The notes under the pieces: model-generated
Databases searched by the model: none
What the model saw: the letters and a program-made list of their open reading frames with translations, nothing else
What the model was told of the DNA's origin: nothing
Position numbers and translations under genes: made by a program
Origin: Patescibacteria group bacterium
GTDB lineage: Bacteria; Patescibacteriota; Microgenomatia; UBA10105; UBA927
Length of the DNA stretch: 52,738 nucleotides
Direction of reading: 5' to 3'
NCBI GenBank assembly: GCA_049322955.1
Contig: JBMOPU010000033.1
Location: forward strand, 194,784-247,521
In this document: one piece after another, positions 1,517 to 45,804 of the stretch
Position numbering within the stretch: the first letter of the stretch is position 1
Layout: every line of letters begins with the position of its first letter

Positions 1517-2272
1517 ATGAACACAAATCAAAAAACAGCCATCCTTGCACTTTTTCTTACGTTTGCTAGCGTTACTCCCAAAGTATTTGCTTCTTCAATT
1601 GCCGAGGCTCGGGAAGAGCGGAAGGAGGCAAGACGCGAATACCGGGAAGAAAAAAAGAATCTTTTTGAACAGTTCAAAGAACGGTTTAGTTCACGAGCCG
1701 CCGAGGTGAGAAACTTTATGAGCGCGCGAGTGAATGTAAGTAACGCAAAAGTAACGGCAAAAACAGATTCCACTCTTACGATTGAGAAAGATGGAAAAAG
1801 TTATACCGTCAATGTTGACAACAAAACGCAGATTCGCCGCAGATTCTGGGGCAAATCGAATCTTTCAGAGTTTAGTGTCGGAAATATCGTGAATGTTATC
1901 GGTATCTGGACGGATGATTCCCATACCACGATTACCGCACGCCTGATACGCAATCTTTCCATCCAAAAGCGATTCGGCGTTTTCTTCGGTGAGGTCAAAT
2001 CGCTTGTCGGGAACGGTTGGGTGATGAGCACCAAGAGTGAAAACAGAGCGGATCAGACAGTTACCGTCACCGAAAGCACAAAGTTTGAAAATCGGAAAGG
2101 GGAAACCATTACCAAAGCAGATGTGGTCGTAGGACACAGGGTGCGTGTTCGGGGGCTTTGGGACAAATCACAAAATACCATTACTGAGGTAACACAAGTA
2201 AAGGATTTTAGCCTGCCGAGTGTTTCTGAAGTTACCGTAACGGCAACCGTCACCGTTACTCCGACCCCCTAA
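1517..2272 (+). CDS. secreted protein with two DUF5666-like repeats
   Basis: Signal peptide (ILALFLTFASVTPKVFASS). Two internally similar beta-rich repeats. Low-complexity TVTATVTVTPTP tail. Confidence 0.55.
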   Translation: MNTNQKTAILALFLTFASVTPKVFASSIAEAREERKEARREYREEKKNLFEQFKERFSSRAAEVRNFMSARVNVSNAKVTAKTDSTLTIEKDGKSYTVNVDNKTQIRRRFWGKSNLSEFSVGNIVNVIGIWTDDSHTTITARLIRNLSIQKRFGVFFGEVKSLVGNGWVMSTKSENRADQTVTVTESTKFENRKGETITKADVVVGHRVRVRGLWDKSQNTITEVTQVKDFSLPSVSEVTVTATVTVTPTP

Positions 2273-2293
2273 GTTAGGATTTCGGATCCCTGT

Positions 2294-2324
2294 ACCCAGC
2301 CCTTCACGAAGGGCTGGGTTTTTG
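2294..2324 (+). terminator. rho-independent terminator
   Basis: ACCCAGCCC-ttcacgaa-GGGCTGGGT followed by TTTTT, 22 nt after the stop at 2272. Confidence 0.65.
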
Positions 2325-2334
2325 GTGTGATAGA

Positions 2335-3162
2335 ATGATGCACATGTCCGCATCAGTGAATGATATCGGGTCATTTCGGCGTATGATTTTTGCGTGGTGG
2401 AAAACACATCGAAGAGATCTGCCGTGGCGACATACACGGGATCCGTATAAAATTCTTGTTTCGGAAGTGATGTTACAACAGACCCAAGTATCGCGGGTTC
2501 TCCCGAAATATGATGAATTTCTTGGCGAATTTCCTACGGTTCATGCGCTTGCAAAGGCAACACCCGCACACGTACTCAGAGCATGGCGGGGGATGGGATA
2601 TAACCGTCGAGCATTGTACCTCAAAAAAACGGCGGAAGCCGTTGTCTCCGAATATCACGGGATATTTCCGGATAGCGAGTCACAACTCATGAAACTGCCG
2701 GGATTGGGTAAATATACAGCTCGAGCAATTATGGTATTCGCTTTTGAAAAGGATGTCGGGATGGTGGATACCAATATACGACATATTATTACTCACTTTC
2801 TTTATAAAGGGTTGCCGCAGAAGGAAAAAATTATTGAAGCTACCGCGGATCAAATTGTGCCGAAGGGAAAATCCTGGGAATGGCATCAGGCGCTTATGGA
2901 TTACGGCGCTCTTGCCATGCAAAGCGAAAAGAAATCCATGAAACTTGTCAAAAAACAGACTTCATTTAAGGATTCTAACCGTTTTTATCGGGGAAGAATC
3001 GTTGACATGTTACGCTCGGGTAAGACGGGGAGAACACATCTTCTTCTGGATCTTACAAAAAAATACGGGAAGGATAAAAAATTTATCGAAGGGATTATCT
3101 CCGGACTTATCCGTGACGGGCTCGTTGTCGTGCAAGGCACGTCACTTTCTCTTCCGACGTAA
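2335..3162 (+). CDS. HhH-GPD adenine DNA glycosylase (MutY-like), cysteine-free
   Basis: RDLPWR...DPYKILVSEVMLQQTQV, LPGLGKYTARAI (HhH) and VDTNIRHI (catalytic Asp) match the MutY/Nth family. No Fe-S Cys motif and no NUDIX-like C-terminal domain. Confidence 0.8.
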   Translation: MMHMSASVNDIGSFRRMIFAWWKTHRRDLPWRHTRDPYKILVSEVMLQQTQVSRVLPKYDEFLGEFPTVHALAKATPAHVLRAWRGMGYNRRALYLKKTAEAVVSEYHGIFPDSESQLMKLPGLGKYTARAIMVFAFEKDVGMVDTNIRHIITHFLYKGLPQKEKIIEATADQIVPKGKSWEWHQALMDYGALAMQSEKKSMKLVKKQTSFKDSNRFYRGRIVDMLRSGKTGRTHLLLDLTKKYGKDKKFIEGIISGLIRDGLVVVQGTSLSLPT

Positions 3163-3165
3163 TGA

Positions 3166-3495
3166 CTATCTGTTATCTCCTTCTCCGGAAAGTACTCCCC
3201 GCTCTTTTCTGTCCGTAACCTTTGCGGTATTTTGCACCGCAACTTCCTCAAGGCTCACCCCGAGTTCCGTAGCGCAGGCGGTGAGATACCAGAGTACATC
3301 GCCCAGTTCTTTGATCATTTCCTTACGTTTGTCGTCCGTCAGTATTCCGTGTGAGTCCCTGATAAGTTTTTTTACTTTATCGGCCACCTCACCAGCCTCA
3401 CCGGCAAGTCCCAAGGTGGCATAGGCAACATTATTTCCCTGCGAAGGATAAATAGAGGTTTTTTTTACCACATTTTGATAATCATCAAAGTTCAT
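3166..3495 (-). CDS. MazG-like nucleotide pyrophosphohydrolase
   Basis: 109 aa. LGLAGEAGEVADKVKK...ELGDVLWYL is the all-alpha NTP-PPase (MazG) signature. Confidence 0.8.
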   Translation of the reverse strand: MNFDDYQNVVKKTSIYPSQGNNVAYATLGLAGEAGEVADKVKKLIRDSHGILTDDKRKEMIKELGDVLWYLTACATELGVSLEEVAVQNTAKVTDRKERGVLSGEGDNR

Positions 3496-3534
3496 ACGTT
3501 ACTTTTGATAGTTTTTGCCGTCAATGAGTTCCGA

Positions 3535-4362
3535 TTAACTGTTCAGTATGTATAAGTCCTGGCCGTACGTATTGATACCGACGTGTGTTGCTTTGCCCAC
3601 CAATACCGCTTCATACGGCCTACACGCACGACACCCGTCTTCACGACATTTGAAGTGTCCGAGTTTCCGAGCCAGCGCCACTTTTTTAGCGAGTTCCATC
3701 ACTCGTTTTTCGGCGGCTTCTACGTCGGGAAGAGGCATATCCGTGGGAGTGTCATCACGATCCAGATACCAATAGCTGATTGCGCTGATCGGTTTGGTTT
3801 GGGTATGACTGGTCAGGAGATAGTATATGGGAAGTTGCAGGGAATCGGGATCCTCATCAAATTTGCCGGTTTTAAAATCGATAATTCTTACGCTATCCGT
3901 ATCTTCCCGATATTCGAGCCAGTCAACCTTGCCGCATAAAATAATATTATCCTCCTCCGAAAGCCAATAATAGGGGAGTTCCTGGCGGATCTTGATGGCT
4001 TTATTGGCGAGCGGACCCGGATGTGCGGATACTCTCGCGATCATCTCCCTGGCGCGTGATTTAAACTTTTCTTCCTGATCATTGTCGGTAAATCCGCCCT
4101 TGATCCCTGTGACATTTTGCCATAACAATTCAAAGGTTTCGTGTAACGGCTTTTGAAACCGTAACTCAGAGGGAAGTTTCGAAAGAGAATCGATCGTGTC
4201 ATGGACAACTTGTCCGAGCGCGAGCGGCGGTTCCATAACTGAAATTTTGCGATTCGTTTTTGGATCACGATAGACGTTCCGTAAGTAGTATGCACGCGGA
4301 CATTTGAGATAGTCGCTGATCGACGAATGGGAAACCCACACCGCTGAATATTTATCCTTCAT
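3535..4362 (-). CDS. PD-(D/E)XK nuclease family protein (Cas4/RecB-like, 4-Cys)
   Basis: N-terminal YLKCPRAYYL, core D...IIDFKTGK, and C-terminal CREDGCRACRPYE as in Cas4/AddB-type Fe-S nucleases. No CRISPR context. Confidence 0.75.
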   Translation of the reverse strand: MKDKYSAVWVSHSSISDYLKCPRAYYLRNVYRDPKTNRKISVMEPPLALGQVVHDTIDSLSKLPSELRFQKPLHETFELLWQNVTGIKGGFTDNDQEEKFKSRAREMIARVSAHPGPLANKAIKIRQELPYYWLSEEDNIILCGKVDWLEYREDTDSVRIIDFKTGKFDEDPDSLQLPIYYLLTSHTQTKPISAISYWYLDRDDTPTDMPLPDVEAAEKRVMELAKKVALARKLGHFKCREDGCRACRPYEAVLVGKATHVGINTYGQDLYILNS

Positions 4363-4364
4363 AG

Positions 4365-5207
4365 TTAACGGATCAGAAAAATGCCGATCGTGGTGAGTAT
4401 AGCACCAACAATTTTTTTGCCAATATGGGATCGTTCTTTGAGGAATATAGCACTCAGAATGACGGTCAAAATTATGGATACCCGTCCGACGGCGCTCAGC
4501 TGAGACACATATGCTCCCAGTTGCATGGGGATGTAAAACATAAGGGCGGCGAACGTATACAATACGCTATATACGATAAGGTTTACATCGACTGATTTTA
4601 TTGCGGTCGGGAGCTTTGCTGTCGTCCTGGGGAATACAATAAGCAAGAGTACCCCGATGCAAAACGATCCGACGGGGAGATAGGAAATCGCATCGTAGGA
4701 TTTGAGGATAACGGCATCAAAAATAACCGCAGAACCGAAACACGCCGCACCGAGTATTGCTTGCCACGCTCCCGTATGAAGGCGCAGTTTGTGTCTGGAA
4801 AAATTAATGATAACCACGGCTAAAAGTATGAGGATTACGCCGATCAGCTGTGTGCCGTTAAGTCGCTCATGGAGGAAAAAATACGAGAGGATGACGGTTA
4901 CGAGTGTCCCCATACTGCCTAAAATACTTATATCGGAAGCCTCGGTCGTTTTGGCGGATCGAAAGAAAAATATACTGCCGAATCCGTAGAGTACCGCGAT
5001 TGCGGCCATGGGAACCGCCACTTCTTTTGGCGGCAGGTGAAAGCCGAAAACAAGTGCCACGATAAAACTGGTAAGACTCAAAAGGAATTCGAAAATAATC
5101 GCCGATGAGACGGGATCGCTGTCGTTCTTCTTCATCGCCAGCCGTTGAAATATTGCGGCGATAGAAAAGCCTATGACATTCAGTGCGCCGAAGAAAAGCC
5201 AATGCAT
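4365..5207 (-). CDS. EamA/DMT family transporter
   Basis: 280 aa with about 10 hydrophobic helices in two EamA-like halves. Confidence 0.8.
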   Translation of the reverse strand: MHWLFFGALNVIGFSIAAIFQRLAMKKNDSDPVSSAIIFEFLLSLTSFIVALVFGFHLPPKEVAVPMAAIAVLYGFGSIFFFRSAKTTEASDISILGSMGTLVTVILSYFFLHERLNGTQLIGVILILLAVVIINFSRHKLRLHTGAWQAILGAACFGSAVIFDAVILKSYDAISYLPVGSFCIGVLLLIVFPRTTAKLPTAIKSVDVNLIVYSVLYTFAALMFYIPMQLGAYVSQLSAVGRVSIILTVILSAIFLKERSHIGKKIVGAILTTIGIFLIR

Positions 5208-5259
5208 CCGTTCATTATACGATTTTTCTTCTGTTGCAACAGAGGAGGAAACAGCGGTG

Positions 5260-6132
5260 TCACGGGGTATTTGCTGATGCGGGAAGACCGAAATGATCGA
5301 AAATCGTCAATATACCGTTGGTATCCACATGTCCGCCGATAAATCCGGCTTCATTTTTGGCACGCACCAATTCTTTCAATGGTTCCAGACCGTTATCGAG
5401 CGTTGCCGCATACCCGCACAGTTCCATAAACTTCCAGTCGCTCGTGCTATCTCCCACTCCCAGTACTTCTTTGGGGTTTAATCCGAGGTGGGTAAAAACG
5501 GTAAGCGCGGCACCTCGTTTGGATATTCCTTTTTGCGCAATTCCGCAGAACTGATGCGGCATCGCGATAGGATGGAGACTCCAGGTAATTTCAACGACAT
5601 CTTTGAAAGGAAGAAGCGTTTTTTCTACGGTAGGCATGCCCGACTCATCCGGAACCACGGGCATTATTTTGTAAATATCCTGGGTGTTCACAACGGAATC
5701 AAACGAATCGACAAATACCGGAGGTTTTTGCAGAATATGAGTGTGTACGCGCGTGAGATCATTCTCCTGATTTTTCAGTACGTAATAATTATCAAGCGAA
5801 TACACCTCCGTGTAAAAGTTATGTTTCATACACGCGGAAACTATTTCTTTTGCCGTTGATCTTTCGAGCGGATGGGTTTCGACAATACGATCCTTTACCG
5901 GATCAATGATGACTCCTCCCGCGTAAGTGATATGCGGATTGGATAGACCCGCATCCGTAATGATCGGGAGTATCGAGTAATGCGGCTTTGCGGTGCAAAG
6001 GATGACGGGAATGCCATGGGTAACGATTGCCCGCATGCGGTTTGAAACATCAGCATGAGGATACGGCGAATTGAATCCGATTTTTTCTCCGACAATGACG
6101 CCGTCGATGTCGAGTATAAGCCCCGTAATCAT
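5260..6132 (-). CDS. Cof-type HAD-IIB family hydrolase
   Basis: Start moved to the ATG at 6132 (MITGLILDIDGVIVGE, which carries the DxD motif). C-terminal GVGDSTSDWKFM motif. Confidence 0.75.
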   Translation of the reverse strand: MITGLILDIDGVIVGEKIGFNSPYPHADVSNRMRAIVTHGIPVILCTAKPHYSILPIITDAGLSNPHITYAGGVIIDPVKDRIVETHPLERSTAKEIVSACMKHNFYTEVYSLDNYYVLKNQENDLTRVHTHILQKPPVFVDSFDSVVNTQDIYKIMPVVPDESGMPTVEKTLLPFKDVVEITWSLHPIAMPHQFCGIAQKGISKRGAALTVFTHLGLNPKEVLGVGDSTSDWKFMELCGYAATLDNGLEPLKELVRAKNEAGFIGGHVDTNGILTIFDHFGLPASANTP

Positions 6133-6228
6133 GCAACAATTATAGCAGAACCGAAGCCACAAAAGATCGGTATTTTCAAAGTGAACGAATAGTTGTATAG
6201 TACGCATACTGCCCCAAAATAATCTTCA

Positions 6229-6936
6229 ATGAAAGAAATAAATTCCCGTCAGGAATCGAGAGAGAGACTTACAGAACGTCCGTTTCATGTCACCATCGTA
6301 GGACCCGCTTGCTCGGGCAAGTCTACGTTACTGGGTACGTTACAGGATCACGGGTATAGCGTACATACCGAACCCGAAAATCCCGTTTTCCCGTTATTTG
6401 TCGAGAATCCCAAAAAATTCGCTTTTGAAAATCAGTTGCATAAAACAATACAGCTTATGCAATTGGAAATTCTTGATACCAAAGCCGAAGGACTTACCAA
6501 CCCGCATTTCCGTGAGAGCGGCGTTTTGGCTACCGAAGTGTATAACCGATATCTGCACGATCAGGGATTGTTATCCGACGATCAATACGGATATCTCCAT
6601 TGGTTACATGAACATCATATGGTAACGTTTCCGAATCCTGATTTGGTTATCTATCTTCATGCGCCTGATGCGGAAATCAGAAAGCGGATGATGAAACGCG
6701 ACGGATTTGTCGCCCATGACCCGGTAGAACTCCAACCGTATTGGGACCGCCTGTTGGTGGACCTGGAAGACAGAGGAGTACCGGTATATCGCATAAATAC
6801 CGGCGATCATCCCGTTGGGGTCACGGAAGAGTTGATTATGAGCCAGGTCGAACGGTTGAAAGAGAGTCAAAACAGCAAGCGAACCAAGCCCGCAACCTTG
6901 CGGTTCCCGAGTCTCGGGCAACATGCCTCACGATAA
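6229..6936 (+). CDS. deoxynucleoside kinase family protein
   Basis: P-loop VGPACSGKSTL followed by EPENPVFPLFVENP...FENQL, typical of the dAK/dCK/dGK family. Confidence 0.75.
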   Translation: MKEINSRQESRERLTERPFHVTIVGPACSGKSTLLGTLQDHGYSVHTEPENPVFPLFVENPKKFAFENQLHKTIQLMQLEILDTKAEGLTNPHFRESGVLATEVYNRYLHDQGLLSDDQYGYLHWLHEHHMVTFPNPDLVIYLHAPDAEIRKRMMKRDGFVAHDPVELQPYWDRLLVDLEDRGVPVYRINTGDHPVGVTEELIMSQVERLKESQNSKRTKPATLRFPSLGQHASR

Positions 6937-6943
6937 CCGTTTG

Positions 6944-8116
6944 TTAGCGTAATGCTTTTTTCCGCAATGCCTCGTGTTGAAATACCCGGTGATAAAAAAT
7001 GAGCGGTAGGAGGAGTAAAAGATGTGCGATAATCATCGCAATGCGGGGCGTTATCCTATCGGCGACGGCGCCGAGAAGAAGCGCAAACATGCCGAATACG
7101 ATACTTCCGCCGAAGGATGCAAGGGAACTCATGGTAGCCCGTTGTGACTCGCTAAACTCCTTCTGCATAAGAGAATTCATCGCAACAGTTCCCGCCCCGT
7201 AGCTAAGTGAGGTCGTGGACATAAGCGCGGGCGAAAGCACGGTCGGGAAGATGAGCGCCGTGAGATTGACGAGTCGGTTAAAAAGAATTTCAACGTTTAA
7301 CACGCGGAGCGGGGTAAATCGATCAATAACTTTGCCGCTCAAATGAAAACTGAAGGCGCCGCCGATATGGGACAATGAGTACGAAATTCCCACCGCCCAG
7401 AGCGGCCAGAGCGAATGAATAAACGCGGAACGCAAAAAGAAGGTAGACTCTCCTATGCCGAACCGAAGCATGCTTGCGATCGTAAGCATGCGGAGTCGAT
7501 AGTTATGCCGAAACTGATGTAAAGACGATGAAAGATGGGTAAAAACGTTTGTCGACTGTTTTCCCCGATGCGGCGGTTCCGCAAATTGTAGTGCGATAAT
7601 GAACGCGGCAATTTGCGGGATCACTGATGCCCACATAACAAGCGGAAACGAACGGGCGGCAAGAAGTCCGCCGATAAACGTTGCCGCCGCCAAGGCAATT
7701 TGGAACATGCCGCTCGTTTTGCCGAGATACGTGTGATATTCCTTTTCTTTTCCTGAGGCGGAAAGCGTGTCATGGAGGAGCGCATCGTTGTTGCCGCTAT
7801 AGAACGCACGCGATACTCCTTGAAACAATGCGCCGATTACCAGCATGCCGTACGACGTTGCCGCCGCGTAACACATAATGCAAAGCACCGAAAAAAACGC
7901 GCCGAACACCGCGGTTTTCTTTCTTCCCACAAAGTCGGAAACAATTCCCGTCGGTACTTCAAAGATGGCGGAGAAAAGATAAGCAAGAGAGAAAATACTC
8001 ATGCCGAGGGTAAAACTCCCCGATACATTTGCAAAATAGATCACGGCTACCGGCGCAAACAGGACAAAGTCCGTACAAAAATTAAACCATGAGAGGAGTC
8101 GTATATTCCGATGCAT
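6944..8116 (-). CDS. MFS transporter
   Basis: 390 aa, 12 predicted helices, DFVGRKK loop motif. Confidence 0.8.
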   Translation of the reverse strand: MHRNIRLLSWFNFCTDFVLFAPVAVIYFANVSGSFTLGMSIFSLAYLFSAIFEVPTGIVSDFVGRKKTAVFGAFFSVLCIMCYAAATSYGMLVIGALFQGVSRAFYSGNNDALLHDTLSASGKEKEYHTYLGKTSGMFQIALAAATFIGGLLAARSFPLVMWASVIPQIAAFIIALQFAEPPHRGKQSTNVFTHLSSSLHQFRHNYRLRMLTIASMLRFGIGESTFFLRSAFIHSLWPLWAVGISYSLSHIGGAFSFHLSGKVIDRFTPLRVLNVEILFNRLVNLTALIFPTVLSPALMSTTSLSYGAGTVAMNSLMQKEFSESQRATMSSLASFGGSIVFGMFALLLGAVADRITPRIAMIIAHLLLLLPLIFYHRVFQHEALRKKALR

Positions 8117-8214
8117 ATATGTGCGTATTATAGCGGATTAATAGGGTATCGCAGGATCGGATGAGGATGCCAAGGTATATAATACAAACGGATGTACCGA
8201 TACCATACCGCTAA

Positions 8215-8670
8215 GAAAGATTTTGTCGACGTCAGACATCATTCCGATGTCTGACTTGTCGTGCCATCGTTTCTTCAACTTCTTTAGGAACCAAGAATAG
8301 AAATCACTGTCCGTTCTGTCTTTGGTCACGTCATTTGGATGAACATACTCCCGGGGATCGGAAAGCAACATGCGGGTCACGGATGAAACCGATAGGACTA
8401 ACCTTTAGGCCGTCTCGAGTAAATCTCTATACCGGAAGGATAAACGGGGATCTCTTGATTGTTCACGAATGCGTTTTCTGCCATAAAATATCCTGCAATA
8501 GGATCGCAGGCGATGATGACGTCTATGCCATTCTCGACCTATTTGAGGCGCCGACTTGTATCAGCAACACTACGCAAACCATGCTATCTCGGCTTAAGAT
8601 ATCGATGCTTACCCGACAAGATGCGGACGAAGTGAAAACCGCACTCTTTGGGAGAGGGAAGATGCCGTGA
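8215..8670 (+). CDS. RNHCP domain protein; no canonical start codon found (possible pseudogene or sequence error)
   Basis: The frame of ORF 8335-8670 is open back to 8215 and encodes FRCLTCRAIVSSTSLGTKNRNHCPFCLWSRHLD...PGDR...C. This conserved zinc-knuckle lies upstream of the first ATG. Confidence 0.6.
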   Translation, partial: ERFCRRQTSFRCLTCRAIVSSTSLGTKNRNHCPFCLWSRHLDEHTPGDRKATCGSRMKPIGLTFRPSRVNLYTGRINGDLLIVHECVFCHKISCNRIAGDDDVYAILDLFEAPTCISNTTQTMLSRLKISMLTRQDADEVKTALFGRGKMP

Positions 8671-8675
8671 TATAG

Positions 8676-9218
8676 TTGATCCATATGCGATATGTGGCTC
8701 TTCTTCGCGGAATAAATGTCGGGGGAAACAATAAAATTAAAATGGCTGACTTAACGCATGCGGTGGAACATGCGGGTTATACCAACGTCACAACATTTAT
8801 CCAGAGCGGTAACGTCATATTTGATTCAGAGATGAGTGATCGTGAGAAAATCGCCAAAGATATCGAACGGGTTATTCTGGATGCGTTCAAACTCGTCATA
8901 CGGGTGGTGATTCGCTCGCTCCCCGAGATGCAAAGAATTGTTGCGAACATGCCTTCGTCGTGGGCAAAAGAGGATCTTCGTAAATATGTTGCGTTCATCA
9001 AAGAACCGATGACCGCCGCCGCCGCCGCAAAGGAAATTCCCGTACGTGAGGGCATCGATATCCTCGATGTGGGTGACGGCGTACTTTATATGGCAACAAA
9101 AACGGAAGGACTCACCAAAAGCGGATACACCAAAATCGTCGGAACGAAAATATATAACGACATGACAATGCGAAACAGTACTACGACCCTAAAAATACTG
9201 TCGCTTATGCGGCAATAA
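8676..9218 (+). CDS. DUF1697 domain protein
   Basis: RYVALLRGINVGGNNKIKMADL is the hallmark N-terminus of the family. The start may be the ATG at 8685. Confidence 0.75.
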   Translation: MIHMRYVALLRGINVGGNNKIKMADLTHAVEHAGYTNVTTFIQSGNVIFDSEMSDREKIAKDIERVILDAFKLVIRVVIRSLPEMQRIVANMPSSWAKEDLRKYVAFIKEPMTAAAAAKEIPVREGIDILDVGDGVLYMATKTEGLTKSGYTKIVGTKIYNDMTMRNSTTTLKILSLMRQ

Positions 9219-14320: not shown

Positions 14321-14391
14321 TGCGGGATCGTATAACGGTAGTACGCATCCCTCTGGAGGATGTTATCTTGGTTCGAATCCAAGTCCCGCAG
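14321..14391 (+). tRNA. tRNA-Gln (anticodon CTG)
   Basis: Manual cloverleaf: acceptor TGCGGGA/TCCCGCA (U1-A72 as in bacterial tRNA-Gln); D stem GTAT/GTAC; anticodon stem CATCC/GGATG with loop CT-CTG-GA; T arm CTTGG-TTCGAAT-CCAAG; discriminator G. No encoded CCA. Confidence 0.9.
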
Positions 14392-14393
14392 CA
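14377..14393 (+). repeat. direct repeat copy 1 (tRNA-Gln T-loop/acceptor 3' end, ATCCAAGTCCCGCAGCA)
   Basis: Identical 17-mer at 14557-14573. 13-nt core repeated at 15320-15332. Confidence 0.9.
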
Positions 14394-14431
14394 TATACAA
14401 AAATTGCCCTGAAAAGGCATTTTTTGTATAT
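14393..14431. terminator. A-tract/T-tract palindrome (bidirectional terminator-like) directly after tRNA-Gln
   Basis: ATATACAAAAATTGCC-ctgaaaa-GGCATTTTTTGTATAT. 16-bp arms with one mismatch. Confidence 0.55.
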
Positions 14432-14556
14432 ACAGAGATTTAGGATGAGAACCAACTGCCAACAGGCGTATGGTTCGGGAGTATGAAGCATTATTGAAAC
14501 AACGATTTCAATAATAGCGAAATACTCATGAAACCCCGCTTTGCGGGGTGAACATC

Positions 14557-14573
14557 ATCCAAGTCCCGCAGCA
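14557..14573 (+). repeat. direct repeat copy 2 (exact 17-nt copy of tRNA-Gln 3' end)
   Basis: ATCCAAGTCCCGCAGCA is identical to 14377-14393. Confidence 0.9.
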
Positions 14574-14596
14574 AAATTGAGATATACTACCAATAT

Positions 14597-15112
14597 ATGA
14601 ATAAAACGCACATCCATATTATTAAAACTGGCGGAACAATAGAATTTAAGGATCCAGGATACGAAAACGTTAATACACAGATGATGAAACTTGATACCTC
14701 TATAGATACGTACCTCAAAAATATGGTGAAGCCACACTTTGCCTACACCATTGAATCGGTTTGTGAAAAAGATAGTCGAGATGTTACTGACGAAGACCGC
14801 AATAAACTTATCAATGCAATCGAGCATACTTCTCACTCAAATATTGTTATTACCCACGGTACTTATACCATGGGACAAACCGCCAAATACTTAAATAAAC
14901 ATTTTATTGGCAAAGACTTAAAGAAAAAAATTATCCTGACAGGATCTATGATCCCTGTTGTTGGATTCTCTATGTCAGATGCAGCATTTAATCTTGGCTA
15001 CTGCATGGCATCATTCGATCATTTAAAACCAGGAGTCTATATAAGTATGAATGGTGGAATATTCAAGCCTAATGAGGTAGAAAAAAACTCAGAGCTACTC
15101 AGATTTGAATAA
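14597..15112 (+). CDS. asparaginase N-terminal-domain-only protein
   Basis: 171 aa. IIKTGGTIEF (catalytic Thr motif), VITHGTYTM (HGTDT-like) and ILTGSMIP. Visibly more AT-rich than its neighbours. TATACT ends 8 nt upstream of the ATG. Confidence 0.7.
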   Translation: MNKTHIHIIKTGGTIEFKDPGYENVNTQMMKLDTSIDTYLKNMVKPHFAYTIESVCEKDSRDVTDEDRNKLINAIEHTSHSNIVITHGTYTMGQTAKYLNKHFIGKDLKKKIILTGSMIPVVGFSMSDAAFNLGYCMASFDHLKPGVYISMNGGIFKPNEVEKNSELLRFE

Positions 15113-15151
15113 GCTATAACGACCGTATGGTCCGTGACCGGCACGCTCAGC

Positions 15152-15190
15152 ATATACAAAAATTGCCCTGAACGGGCATTTTTTGTATAT
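15152..15190. terminator. second copy of the A-tract/T-tract palindrome
   Basis: Same arms as 14393-14431, with the loop changed to ctgaacg. Lies 40 nt after the stop of the asparaginase-like ORF. Confidence 0.55.
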
Positions 15191-15319
15191 ACAGAGATTT
15201 AGGATGAGAACCAACTGCCAGCAGGCGTATGGTTCGGGATTGAGGAGCCGTTATCGCAACAACGATTGCGATAACAAGCGGATCAGTCATGGAGTCCCGC
15301 CCTGGCGGGACGAATATCT

Positions 15320-15332
15320 TCCAAGTCCCGCA
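15320..15332 (+). repeat. direct repeat copy 3 (13-nt core of tRNA-Gln 3' end)
   Basis: TCCAAGTCCCGCA is identical to 14378-14390. Flanks diverge (TT...ACA). Confidence 0.85.
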
Positions 15333-44837: not shown

Positions 44838-44930
44838 GCGCCCCGTTCGCAATCCAGGAGTGAACGAGCAGAGTCATCGAAGCGAGTACTACTCCTGGTG
44901 AGTGCCACGTACCCGTGGTCAGTCCGGCGC
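44838..44930 (+). repeat. tRNA-Glu-associated structured module, copy G1 (diverged)
   Basis: GCGCC...GGCGC closing helix. Shares GTTCGCAATCCAG and CTGGTGAGTGC blocks with G2. Helices CCAGGAGT/ACTCCTGG and GCCACG-tacc-CGTGGT. Confidence 0.65.
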
Positions 44931-44948
44931 AATTAACAACTAAATATC

Positions 44949-45022
44949 GCCCCGTTCGTCTAGCGGCCTAGGACGGTTCCTTCTCAAGGAACAAATCGCC
45001 GGTTCGAATCCGGCACGGGGTA
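44949..45022 (+). tRNA. tRNA-Glu (anticodon CTC)
   Basis: Manual cloverleaf: acceptor GCCCCGT/ACGGGGT (G1-U72 wobble); D arm GTCT-AGCGGCCTA-GGAC; anticodon stem GTTCC/GGAAC with loop TT-CTC-AA; T arm GCCGG-TTCGAAT-CCGGC; discriminator A. Confidence 0.85.
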
Positions 45023-45024
45023 CA

Positions 45025-45067
45025 TGCATAAAAAAAAGTCCCGCTTTGGCGGGATTTTTTTTATGCA
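45025..45067. terminator. long A-tract/T-tract palindrome (bidirectional terminator) directly after tRNA-Glu
   Basis: TGCATAAAAAAAAGTCCCGC-tttg-GCGGGATTTTTTTTATGCA. Confidence 0.75.
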
Positions 45068-45096
45068 CATATGTCCTGTGCTGAATTATCGAATCA

Positions 45097-45192
45097 GTTC
45101 CCGGTTCGCAATCCAGCAGTAGATAATTCGATTCGTAGAGAATTATTGTACTGCTGGTGAGTGCAGTGTGGTCACTGCAATCCGGCACGGGA
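45097..45192 (+). repeat. tRNA-Glu-associated structured module, copy G2, ending in a 13-nt copy of the tRNA-Glu 3' end
   Basis: CCGGTTCGCAATCC, then CCAGCAGTA/TACTGCTGG enclosing ATAATTC/GAATTAT, then GCAGTG-tggt-CACTGC, then AATCCGGCACGGG (identical to 45007-45019). Confidence 0.7.
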
Positions 45193-45235
45193 TGCATGTT
45201 AAAAATCCCGCACAAACGCGATAGAATATCATTGT

Positions 45236-45718
45236 ATGAATTCATATGGTCACGAATTTGAACATATGGGAACTCGTCGGGAACAACTATTGTCCCGATT
45301 ATCACATTCACTGAATAAATACGGTGTCGCCCAAAATTTGGAAGCGAAAGAACTTTGTTTCGATAACTATCGGCGCTCACTTCAATTCTTACGTAAAAAA
45401 CTCACCTCGTCCGGATTACGTATAAGAGAGTGGAATTTGTTTGGTAGCATGGCGCCTGTTCTCAGGCTTCCGTTCTTACAATCTATATTGTTACCGGTAT
45501 CGAAAGCCCGCTTGGGAATTTACCCGCTCGAATATACACTCGAGGATGCACTCGCAACCGTCACCTCCGGTCATAACGCAAGAAATTTACCTTCTGATAT
45601 TGATCTCATTTTAGATGCAGACAATGGCAATATTTCACCAAGAGATCAATCGTATATCAAATATTTCGCTCGCAAAAGTACGTTTGATGAATACGGAGTG
45701 TTTGTACAGTTTAAGTAG
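45236..45718 (+). CDS. hypothetical protein (weak, split nucleotidyltransferase-like motifs)
   Basis: 160-aa ORF, AT-rich by eye. FGS ... SDIDLILD resembles the minimal NTase G[GS]...DxD pattern, but with unusually long spacing. Confidence 0.45.
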   Translation: MNSYGHEFEHMGTRREQLLSRLSHSLNKYGVAQNLEAKELCFDNYRRSLQFLRKKLTSSGLRIREWNLFGSMAPVLRLPFLQSILLPVSKARLGIYPLEYTLEDALATVTSGHNARNLPSDIDLILDADNGNISPRDQSYIKYFARKSTFDEYGVFVQFK

Positions 45719-45804
45719 CATGCAAATTCTTCCGATTCTTCTTATTTTGTCTCAATACCATTACAAGGAAAAGATCTCTCTTCAGCCCTATAGTACGCTC
45801 TCCG

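Follow-up and report, generated by a model that had tools for sequence, protein, structure and literature searches.

The window analyzed here, a stretch of 52,738 nucleotides (nt) from an ultra-small bacterium of the candidate phyla radiation (CPR), covers positions 194784-247521 of contig C33 in genome G000, which measures 1.33 Mb with 49% GC and 53 tRNA genes. Two of these genes, tRNA-Glu(CUC) and tRNA-Gln(CUG), are intact and are followed by short modules in which a copy of the tRNA end is split by a structured insert, namely module G2 at the former and modules E1 and E2 at the latter (Table 1). Comparison genomes are labeled G002-G018, with G005 being the closest relative, and fetched loci or contigs carry L-numbers. 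In G2, a sense half-site (S1) runs to T-loop position 57, an insert of the G family follows and a second half-site (S2) resumes at position 58. The initial annotation of this DNA had read G2 as two half-sites around a 70-nt insert at 45109-45178, with tRNA-Glu being restored on deletion, and a base-by-base check agrees, G2 minus its insert being GGTTCGAATCCGGCACGGG, which is positions 52-71 of tRNA-Glu(CUC). The S2 of G2 is without the terminal GTAC of the tRNA-end copy, at the junction with 45192-45780. The 7-nt GCAATCC that had been noted on both sides of the insert is present (45108-45114 and 45177-45183), however, it is no target duplication because CARTCC belongs to the insert as its conserved 5' end; at tRNA-Cys the insert keeps CAATCC though the tRNA reads ATTCC.

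E1 and E2 had been described as built like G2 at tRNA-Gln, and their coordinates were checked and found correct. Their inserts form an E family that is unrelated in sequence to the G insert and equally structured, with flanks that track local T-stem changes of tRNA-Gln in G009, G002 and G018. A search pattern for the E family with one mismatch allowed was non-specific, control patterns being matched as often. The E2 insert and its downstream flank are common to G000 and G005 with one mismatch.

While the split architecture had been seen correctly, the antisense copies of the tRNA that precede each pair of half-sites, a counterpart on the 5' side of tRNAs and the associated recombinase and nuclease genes were missing from the earlier account. 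Ahead of S1 in G2 lie two such antisense segments, A2 and A1. In the predicted fold, A2 pairs with S2 over 10 bp including 2 G.U pairs, and A2 variants of the CCTGTGCCGG type occur in four other genomes, G013, G014 and G015 among them. The A1:S1 pairs tallied across copies comprise 80 Watson-Crick, 6 G.T and 2 A.C pairs. Positions 45066-45195 as a whole are predicted to form a four-way junction (-54.7 kcal/mol, z = -6.25) consisting of the A2:S2 and A1:S1 helices with the two insert hairpins branching between them. Since S1 and S2 are each predicted to pair with their own upstream antisense copy and not with each other, the module would not fold as a T-arm.

Table 1. Positions of the tRNA genes, module parts and neighboring features in the window, and of upstream units and nuclease cassettes found elsewhere
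Feature	Position	Strand	Description
tRNA-Gln(CUG)	14321..14392	+	Intact; found in tRNA and Rfam searches
Unit E1	14393..14572	+	Order: terminator, A1, S1, E insert, S2; fold z = -4.79; absent in G005
E1 parts	A1 14449-14455; S1 14471-14477; insert 14478-14556; S2 14557-14572		A1 GAACCAA; S1 TGGTTCG; E-family insert, 79 nt; S2 ATCCAAGTCCCGCAGC
One-gene cargo cassette between E1 and E2	14573..15149	+	Ends ...GCTCAGC, like a tRNA 3' end; absent in G005
Unit E2	15150..15332	+	Order: terminator copy, A1, S1, E insert, S2; fold z = -4.06
E2 parts	A1 15208-15214; S1 15230-15236; insert 15237-15319; S2 15320-15332		A1 GAACCAA; S1 TGGTTCG; E-family insert, 83 nt; S2 TCCAAGTCCCGCA
Left flank of upstream unit G1	44840..44849	+	Copy of tRNA-Glu(CUC) positions 1-10, GCCCCGTTCG; starts ~10 nt past the -10-like box GATAAAAT
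G-family insert, copy G1	44850..44919	+	Covariance-model match 88.5 bits; follows GTTCG in the 5' tRNA fragment instead of lying in a T-loop
Truncated second G-insert start, then spacer to the tRNA	44920..44948	+	CAGTCCGGCGCAATTAAC; resembles the insert start CAGTCCAGCGCTTAAC
tRNA-Glu(CUC)	44949..45023	+	Intact; ARAGORN and Rfam, 57.6 bits
Palindromic intrinsic terminator	45024..45069	+	ATGCAT A8 GTCCCGC tttg GCGGGAT T8 ATGCAC; left part of the downstream unit
A2, antisense copy of tRNA positions ~62-73	45074..45083	+	TCCTGTGCTG; outer helix of the minimum-free-energy fold
A1, decayed antisense copy of the T-stem 5' strand plus TTC	45091..45097	+	GAATCAG; pairs with S1; GAACCGG in relatives
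S1, sense half-site	45100..45108	+	CCCGGTTCG; T-stem 5' strand and T-loop to position 57
G-family insert, copy G2	45109..45178	+	70 nt; covariance-model match 80.8 bits; fold z = -4.46
S2, sense half-site	45179..45191	+	AATCCGGCACGGG; T-loop from position 58, T-stem 3' strand, acceptor 3' strand
Cargo insertion after S2	45192..45780	+	~590 nt; present in G000, missing in G005 (G000-G005 alignment)
ORF-less upstream units, G000	C12:32115-32171; C12:136951-137010; C12:579656-579710		At tRNA-Arg-CCG, tRNA-Met and tRNA-Leu-CAA, respectively
GIY-YIG cassette loci	G000 C12:496734-497028; L110, L114, L115, L117, L119, L121-L123		G000 copy upstream of tRNA-Ile-GAU, with an in-frame TAA

The fold of the G insert is conserved by compensatory change. 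Alignment of 20 copies with MAFFT gave a consensus of three helices, and a covariance model then recovered 67 copies, 49 of them distinct, from the fetched loci. Pairing extends to 97% of cells in the distinct copies, and changes on both sides are found in 16 of 18 pairs, with 151 compensatory cells vs. 39 +/- 5 in shuffles (0 of 500 reached the observed value) and with slid controls pairing at 51% or less. In G2 these helices are P1 (CCAGCAG/CTGCTGG), an idiosyncratic long hairpin P2 and P3 (GCAGTG-tggt-CACTGC). The start motif of the insert was found in 16 of 61 relatives, the reversed control pattern giving 0-2 matches per genome, and the covariance model detected the insert in 14 of 401 genomes of the class, nearly all of one genus or family, with matches lying almost always 60-160 nt from a tRNA. 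A strict G pattern was matched by 29 groundwater metagenome contigs, and a loose one (16 specified bases) returned chance matches only from the sequence collection.

When each of the 53 tRNAs of G000 was compared with its own flanks, few had an exact self-copy of at least 13 nt within 450 nt, and those that did (Glu-UUC, Cys, Asn, Gln-UUG, Pro, Trp) share the module architecture. Downstream modules accordingly stand in G000 at tRNA-Glu(UUC), Cys, Asn (two units), Gln(UUG), Pro(UGG) and Trp as well, the last of these without an insert. In relatives, the downstream unit reads as tRNA, palindromic terminator, a conserved linker of ~25 nt, GAACCGG-ttta-CCGGTTCG, insert, and AATCCGG... to the tRNA end. 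Across different tRNAs, the linker moves together with the antisense segments and the insert as one conserved unit, while A1 (GAACC plus the T-stem complement) tracks the tRNA, with CCGG at Glu and Cys, CCAA or CCTA at Gln and CCCG in a Glu variant. With register allowed for, right flanks agree with the adjacent tRNA at 16-17 of 17 positions; after the insert, for example, the flank is GGCAGGGGGTAC at Glu(UUC) and ATTCCGGCACGCGCCTC at Cys, each taken from the neighboring tRNA. The expectation that half-sites always match the tRNA beside them thus stands as a general rule, with two exceptions (L406 and L401). The claim that unrelated insert families share one design and take their flanks from the adjacent tRNA extends to a common split at T-loop 57/58 and to more tRNAs, at least four unrelated families (G, E, a Pro-type and a 24-nt hairpin) occupying this same T-loop position. 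The two flanks of G2 are short (8 + 13 nt), and if they were all there was, the resemblance to tRNA halves could be put down to coincidence or to an assembly artefact; with the architecture recurring at 8 or more tRNAs of G000, in at least 14 genomes and on the 29 metagenome contigs, and with flanks co-varying with each tRNA, that idea is already refuted and we give it practically no credence.

Two of the other modules of G000 depart from the common form. The one after tRNA-Pro-UGG (C12:654684-654810) adds a 5' acceptor strand, CGGGGTG, with which an acceptor-like stem can form around a T-arm that contains a 68-nt insert. At tRNA-Trp, the module (C12:431960-432159) holds an uninterrupted pseudo-T-arm, of the kind that the initial annotation proposed to look for, together with an inverted T-arm copy. 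It was also observed that the units bring terminators whose stems consist of words derived from the tRNA or the insert, paired with the complements of these words, such as ATCCGG/CCGGAT, GGAGC/GCTCC and AATCCAGCA/TGCTGGATT (45024-45069; L005, L017, L019, L074). The terminator at 45024-45069 is homologous to that behind tRNA-Glu(UUC).

Units are present, absent or exchanged among close relatives. Where G010 has two units directly behind ...GGGGTAC, G016 has an empty site, and there are none in G011, G004 and G017. Two metagenome contigs, L398 and L407, have identical flanks and different unit alleles. G005 carries an extra complete 129-nt unit just before tRNA-Glu, made up of positions 1-10, the insert, positions 12-20 and a 39-nt spacer, and located at the 3' end of the stretch that corresponds to 44920-44948; this type of 39-nt spacer is repeated in other genomes, and tandem units exist. 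At the Gln locus, G005 has a single unit and G000 has E1, a cargo open reading frame (ORF) and E2, with every inserted segment ending in ...CAGC like the tRNA. The cargo ORF (14597-15112) belongs to the asparaginase family (Pfam PF00710, E = 3e-24), and its 171 aa cover the N-terminal domain only. Likewise, the DNA behind G2 at 45192-45780 holds a relic half-terminator, ATGCATGTTAAAAATCCCGC, and an unclassified ORF of 160 codons (45236-45718) with no Pfam match, and by the alignment it is a cargo insertion at the tRNA-like end S2. Of the Asn pair in G000, the distal unit is decayed and the proximal one intact. Hybrids that join a T-loop flank on the left to a 5'-type flank on the right also exist and show recombination between inserts.

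Larger cargo lies in the same position. In G014, tRNA-Asn is followed by a 9.1-kb serine-recombinase island ending ...CGGAGC, a G unit, 1.3 kb of cargo ending ...CGGAGC and a second G unit, the island and target junctions sharing only GGAGCA, which is compatible with the attachment (att) junctions of a serine integrase. On L422 the order is tRNA-Asn, a one-ORF cassette and then a unit. A short core resembling the tRNA end (CGGAGC, CAGC or GGGGTAC) closes each inserted segment. The tRNA stays intact, and DNA that some relatives have and others lack is delimited by a repeat of the tRNA 3' end, as at the attachment repeats of genomic islands and cis-mobilizable elements (CIMEs). The half-sites are carried by the module itself, since those of L406 and L401 differ from the adjacent tRNA and the L406 unit recurs, directly after ...GTAC, in L404 and L420, contigs of 2.5-3.6 kb on which no tRNA was found nearby. 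"Solo" units had been considered as proof of insertion at secondary sites, but this argument is weakened by at least one of them (L019) being the terminal unit of a 9-kb island array.

Of the enzymes that might move such DNA, large serine recombinases are the best placed. Composed of Resolvase, Recombinase and zinc-ribbon domains, they are encoded in 13 of 18 genomes of the genus, and 19 of 30 fetched genes (L426-L455) converge on a tRNA 3' end within ~300 nt, with most others lying on short contigs. Both chromosomal copies of G000 are among these 19 (C12:28687-30400 at tRNA-Ser-GGA and C12:658970-660496 at tRNA-Leu-GAG). Islands that encode a serine recombinase and have a module at their far end occur in G014 and on L421, a groundwater metagenome contig of 44.8 kb. 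On the latter, 8.8 kb before a G unit encode a large serine recombinase, an inovirus-type replication protein of the PF05144 family (Phage_CRI, G2P) and a protein of the staphylococcal nuclease family (island at 1700-8800 in module orientation, the reverse complement of the stored locus), and this island possibly represents a filamentous-phage-like element that has integrated into a CPR genome. Other homologs of the L421 recombinase are found at tRNA-Glu, with or without a G unit between. Behind tRNA-Ser in G000 a second copy of CAGGTTCGAG was observed ahead of the recombinase gene.

The initial annotation suggested looking for co-occurring enzyme genes, and serine recombinases and GIY-YIG nucleases were indeed found near tRNAs, while Y1 HUH, IS110 and IS91 transposases were unlinked to the modules. 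The GTTCR that precedes inserts resembles a target of Y1 HUH (IS200/IS605) elements, though PF01797 is absent from G000. An IS110/IS1111 mobilizer guided by a bridge RNA was rejected with PF01548 in 3 of 37 relatives and missing in most module-bearing genomes, as was an IS91 mobilizer (target GTTC), PF04986 being present only on contig C6 of G000 and in 0 of 36 relatives. No integron integrase was identified, the three tyrosine (XerCD-type) recombinases of G000 being unclassified and attC R/L boxes not having been sought. As for contig C6 (2251 nt), it carries a tyrosine recombinase and an IS91-type Y2 transposase and, at 55% GC, is probably foreign. G000 contigs below 6 kb range from 30 to 65% GC and several are probably foreign; contig C4 (2540 nt) has 0% G+C, presumably masked N.

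A mirror-image class of modules precedes tRNAs. In this class, found at Arg-CCG, Ile-GAU, Leu-CAA and Met, tRNA positions 1 to ~12 are copied ahead of a short double hairpin, after which come the few tRNA bases next in order and then the intact gene. The ORF-less members consist of the first 12 tRNA bases, a double hairpin of ~30 nt whose copies differ by compensatory changes, the 8-9 tRNA bases that come next and the intact tRNA, and they begin 8-10 nt past a TATAAT box, so that they are part of the tRNA leader. G1, which lies ahead of tRNA-Glu(CUC), belongs to this 5'-side kind, with a right flank that is the truncated start of another insert with no T-stem, and it differs from its G005 orthologue at 2 of ~115 positions. 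The G insert always directly follows GTTCR, either in the T-loop (57/58) or at the GTTCG of positions 6-10 of tRNA-Glu (10/11).

The position of the upstream units between promoter and tRNA means that they must be transcribed, and this speaks for the modules being functional small RNAs, or cis parts of tRNA precursors that control maturation or stability or act as decoys, possibly against tRNA-targeting nucleases. So do the strong conserved fold, a G1 copy as conserved as the tRNA, some downstream units without an intervening terminator (L002, tRNA-Cys) and the tolerance of G.T above A.C on the tRNA strand, which fits folding as a single strand. The latter ratio is 22:12 in the insert, 6:2 in A1:S1 and 9:1 in A2:S2, counts that come from copies related to one another and so do not amount to a formal test, and it is a moderate sign that the tRNA strand may fold single-stranded. 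Nonetheless, we consider an RNA function quite unlikely. Most downstream units stand behind a strong bidirectional terminator with no convincing promoter found, units are present, absent or allele-swapped among very close relatives and decay in tandem arrays, and they occur at only some tRNAs of only some genomes. The half-sites form no T-arm, and the modules match no RNA family, with Rfam returning only the two intact tRNAs and terminator-like noise both at gathering thresholds and at E <= 1. Neither a covariance model nor ARAGORN recognized them as tRNA, tRNA-like or transfer-messenger RNA (tmRNA). The tRNA set of G000 is complete without the interrupted copies, and no tmRNA gene was found by ARAGORN in this genome, which is rated 98% complete. 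An earlier suggestion that the modules are RNAs mimicking the T-arm is not favored, the half-sites being predicted to pair with their own antisense copies, and the modules are most likely not working tRNA mimics. A hammerhead ribozyme was also considered for CUGGUGAGU, which on inspection resembles CUGAUGA but lacks A6 and G12, which we take to be invariant in the hammerhead core.

Some of the 5'-side units carry a gene. Of 29 small GIY-YIG genes in the genus, 18 have a tRNA at a distance of less than 150 nt, and nine cassettes consist of a promoter, tRNA positions 1-12, the double hairpin, an ORF of ~88 aa and the intact tRNA (D-stem region). The tRNAs concerned are Ile, Pro, Gly, Leu and Asp, with the cassettes at positions 9-13; some copies have in-frame stops, and 57-nt versions that lack the ORF also exist. 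The arrangement of a homing-endonuclease cassette is seen in this double-hairpin class only, not in G2 or E1/E2. In phages T4 and T6, a GIY-YIG nuclease is reported to cut tRNA genes at RAWTSGAAC, the complement of the T-loop sequence GTTCSAWTY, and this enzyme, SegB, reportedly drives tandem amplification of tRNA segments via microhomology (PMC13096335). Its bearing on the modules described here is by analogy.

This cleavage at the T-loop complement, together with the abundance of small GIY-YIG genes beside tRNAs, also lends itself to another explanation, in which the insert is a tiny, autonomous-looking hairpin element that is pasted after GTTCR where it does no harm, the split tRNA copies being pre-existing attachment-site leftovers hit by chance. 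The same G insert follows GTTCG in two unrelated contexts (the T-loop and tRNA-Glu 10/11), inserts occur nested, in tandem and with hybrid flanks (L026, L012, G008), and tRNA-Trp has an insert-free pseudo-T-arm with the same antisense segment. The first and last of these observations also favor one part of an older proposal, that of decayed tRNA pseudogenes hit by a T-loop element, but the copies are precise 3' thirds with added antisense segments and not whole tRNAs in decay. Against the pasted hairpin, four or more unrelated insert families at one T-loop position indicate that the position matters rather than the targeting of one element, no copy lies outside tRNA-derived sequence among ~70 matches, HUH transposase is absent, and linker, antisense segments and insert travel jointly across tRNAs. 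We therefore regard this explanation as unlikely, though it deserves to be taken seriously.

The proposal that best accommodates these observations is that G2, E1 and E2 are attachment-site modules and, where bare, ORF-less mini-units of tRNA-targeting integrative elements, to which we give about even chances. It agrees with the initial suggestion of attP-like arms of a tRNA-targeting family, which is the best supported of the ideas offered there, given that units are polymorphic, form tandem arrays, lie distal to cargo and to a serine-recombinase island and sometimes carry non-matching half-sites. A downstream unit comprises a replacement terminator, a short linker, antisense segments A2 and A1, and sense half-sites S1 and S2 split at 57/58 by a lineage-specific folded insert. 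New DNA, be it a bare unit, a one-gene cassette or a whole island, would enter right behind the last bases of the tRNA or of the tRNA-like S2, which would leave the real tRNA intact and the module at the far side. From the position of their genes at tRNA 3' ends across the genus, we infer that large serine recombinases are the probable enzymes of this 3'-side traffic. S2 (~17-19 nt, from position 58 to the end) may correspond to about one serine-integrase half-site centered on the tRNA end, and this would explain why homology starts at the T-loop. On the upstream side, a 5' tRNA piece split by a hairpin insert is followed by a GIY-YIG nuclease gene or its ORF-less remnant.

Several points weigh against this proposal. 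The circular junction of a bare unit would look like attB and not attP, and serine integrases do not recombine attB with attB, leaving the multiplication of ORF-less units unexplained. These enzymes also need no long structured arm, so that they do not account for the conserved insert or for A1 and A2. The two serine-recombinase loci of G000 have no module or tRNA-end repeat within 10 kb, and the co-location of recombinases and modules could merely reflect a shared hotspot. The strict G pattern had 0 matches in viral contigs, and no unit was found on a phage or plasmid contig. None of the 29 GIY-YIG loci has a G insert beside the gene, and the proposal that GIY-YIG gene ends survive as the spacers of upstream G units was rejected, local alignments being no better than shuffles (p = 0.18-0.95). 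Finally, G1 is 98% conserved between G000 and G005, where neighboring genes are ~85-95% identical, and this could mean a host function.

A full-text literature search returned no description of these split tRNA-end modules. They behave most like tRNA-linked islands and CIMEs with tandem accretion. As in tRNA islands, prophages and CIMEs (e.g., the tycheposons of Prochlorococcus), the tRNA remains intact, a 3'-end repeat marks the far side, cargo forms arrays and there are mini-derivatives without a recombinase. They differ in four ways, as the repeat is split in the T-loop by a conserved folded insert with antisense copies ahead of it, bare units are only ~170-250 bp, the recombinases are large serine and not tyrosine enzymes, and there is a mirror-image class of nuclease cassettes on the 5' side. 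The recombinases share with large serine integrases of the phiC31, Bxb1 and TP901-1 type their Resolvase, Recombinase and zinc-ribbon architecture, a short shared core (here GGAGCA or GGGGTAC) and a gene at one end of the island. However, the known enzymes need only duplex sites of ~40-50 bp, and their sites have nothing like the insert or the antisense segments. We know of no systematic use of tRNA 3' ends by well-studied large serine integrases.

In integron attC sites and in the attP(+) hairpin of CTX-phi, which is used by the host XerCD, one strand holds both a sequence and its complement, and folding rebuilds a duplex site. The modules similarly have sense and antisense on one strand with an unpaired or branched middle, their cassettes have no recombinase of their own, and one island encodes an inovirus-type protein for the replication of single-stranded DNA (ssDNA). 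The known sites, in contrast, are split or consumed on integration, whereas here the sense and antisense arms stay together at one end. By this comparison, a module might act as a folded single strand, either the ssDNA of a small circle or inovirus-like element or an RNA, that rebuilds a duplex replica of the last third of the tRNA with the insert as a branched T-loop spacer. Such a retargetable attachment site encoded in nucleic acid would acquire a new tRNA target by changes in three short segments, with host or helper enzymes doing the chemistry; we think this very doubtful.

Other likenesses are more partial. SegB of T4 and T6 is likewise encoded by a small GIY-YIG gene among tRNA genes (PMC13096335), but it is a phage protein with a DNA-binding domain, whereas the genes described here are chromosomal, encode putative nucleases of ~85-110 aa with the catalytic domain only and sit in a cassette with a replacement 5' tRNA piece. 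Double-hairpin elements of chytrid and fission-yeast mitochondria are short, conserved, non-coding inserts of two hairpins that vary in number from one close relative to another and are believed to move by a mechanism not yet identified (PMC10085805, PMC2800124). Unlike the modules, they belong to organelles, lie mostly between genes and have no tie to tRNA-derived flanks, and there is no sequence similarity between the two. The non-canonical tRNA introns of the Thermoproteales are also related structured inserts at several positions of different tRNA genes, including the T-loop. These, however, interrupt functional tRNA genes, and the archaeal endonuclease splices them, while the modules are fragments beside an intact bacterial gene.

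Genes for tRNAs are the classic landing pads of mobile DNA, and the sites within them have so far been viewed as simple duplex repeats. In this genome-reduced CPR lineage they are the center of a layered system made up of spare-end modules, one-gene cassettes, serine-recombinase islands (one with filamentous-phage replication genes) and nuclease cassettes on the 5' side. It should be noted that partial tRNA copies of this kind can mislead both tRNA annotation and the prediction of island boundaries in metagenome-assembled genomes. If the proposal is true, the modules would provide compact, naturally retargeted integration sites with matching serine integrases. Should they be functional attachment sites, they would also explain how genomes of 1 Mb gain and shuffle accessory genes while leaving their single-copy tRNAs undamaged.

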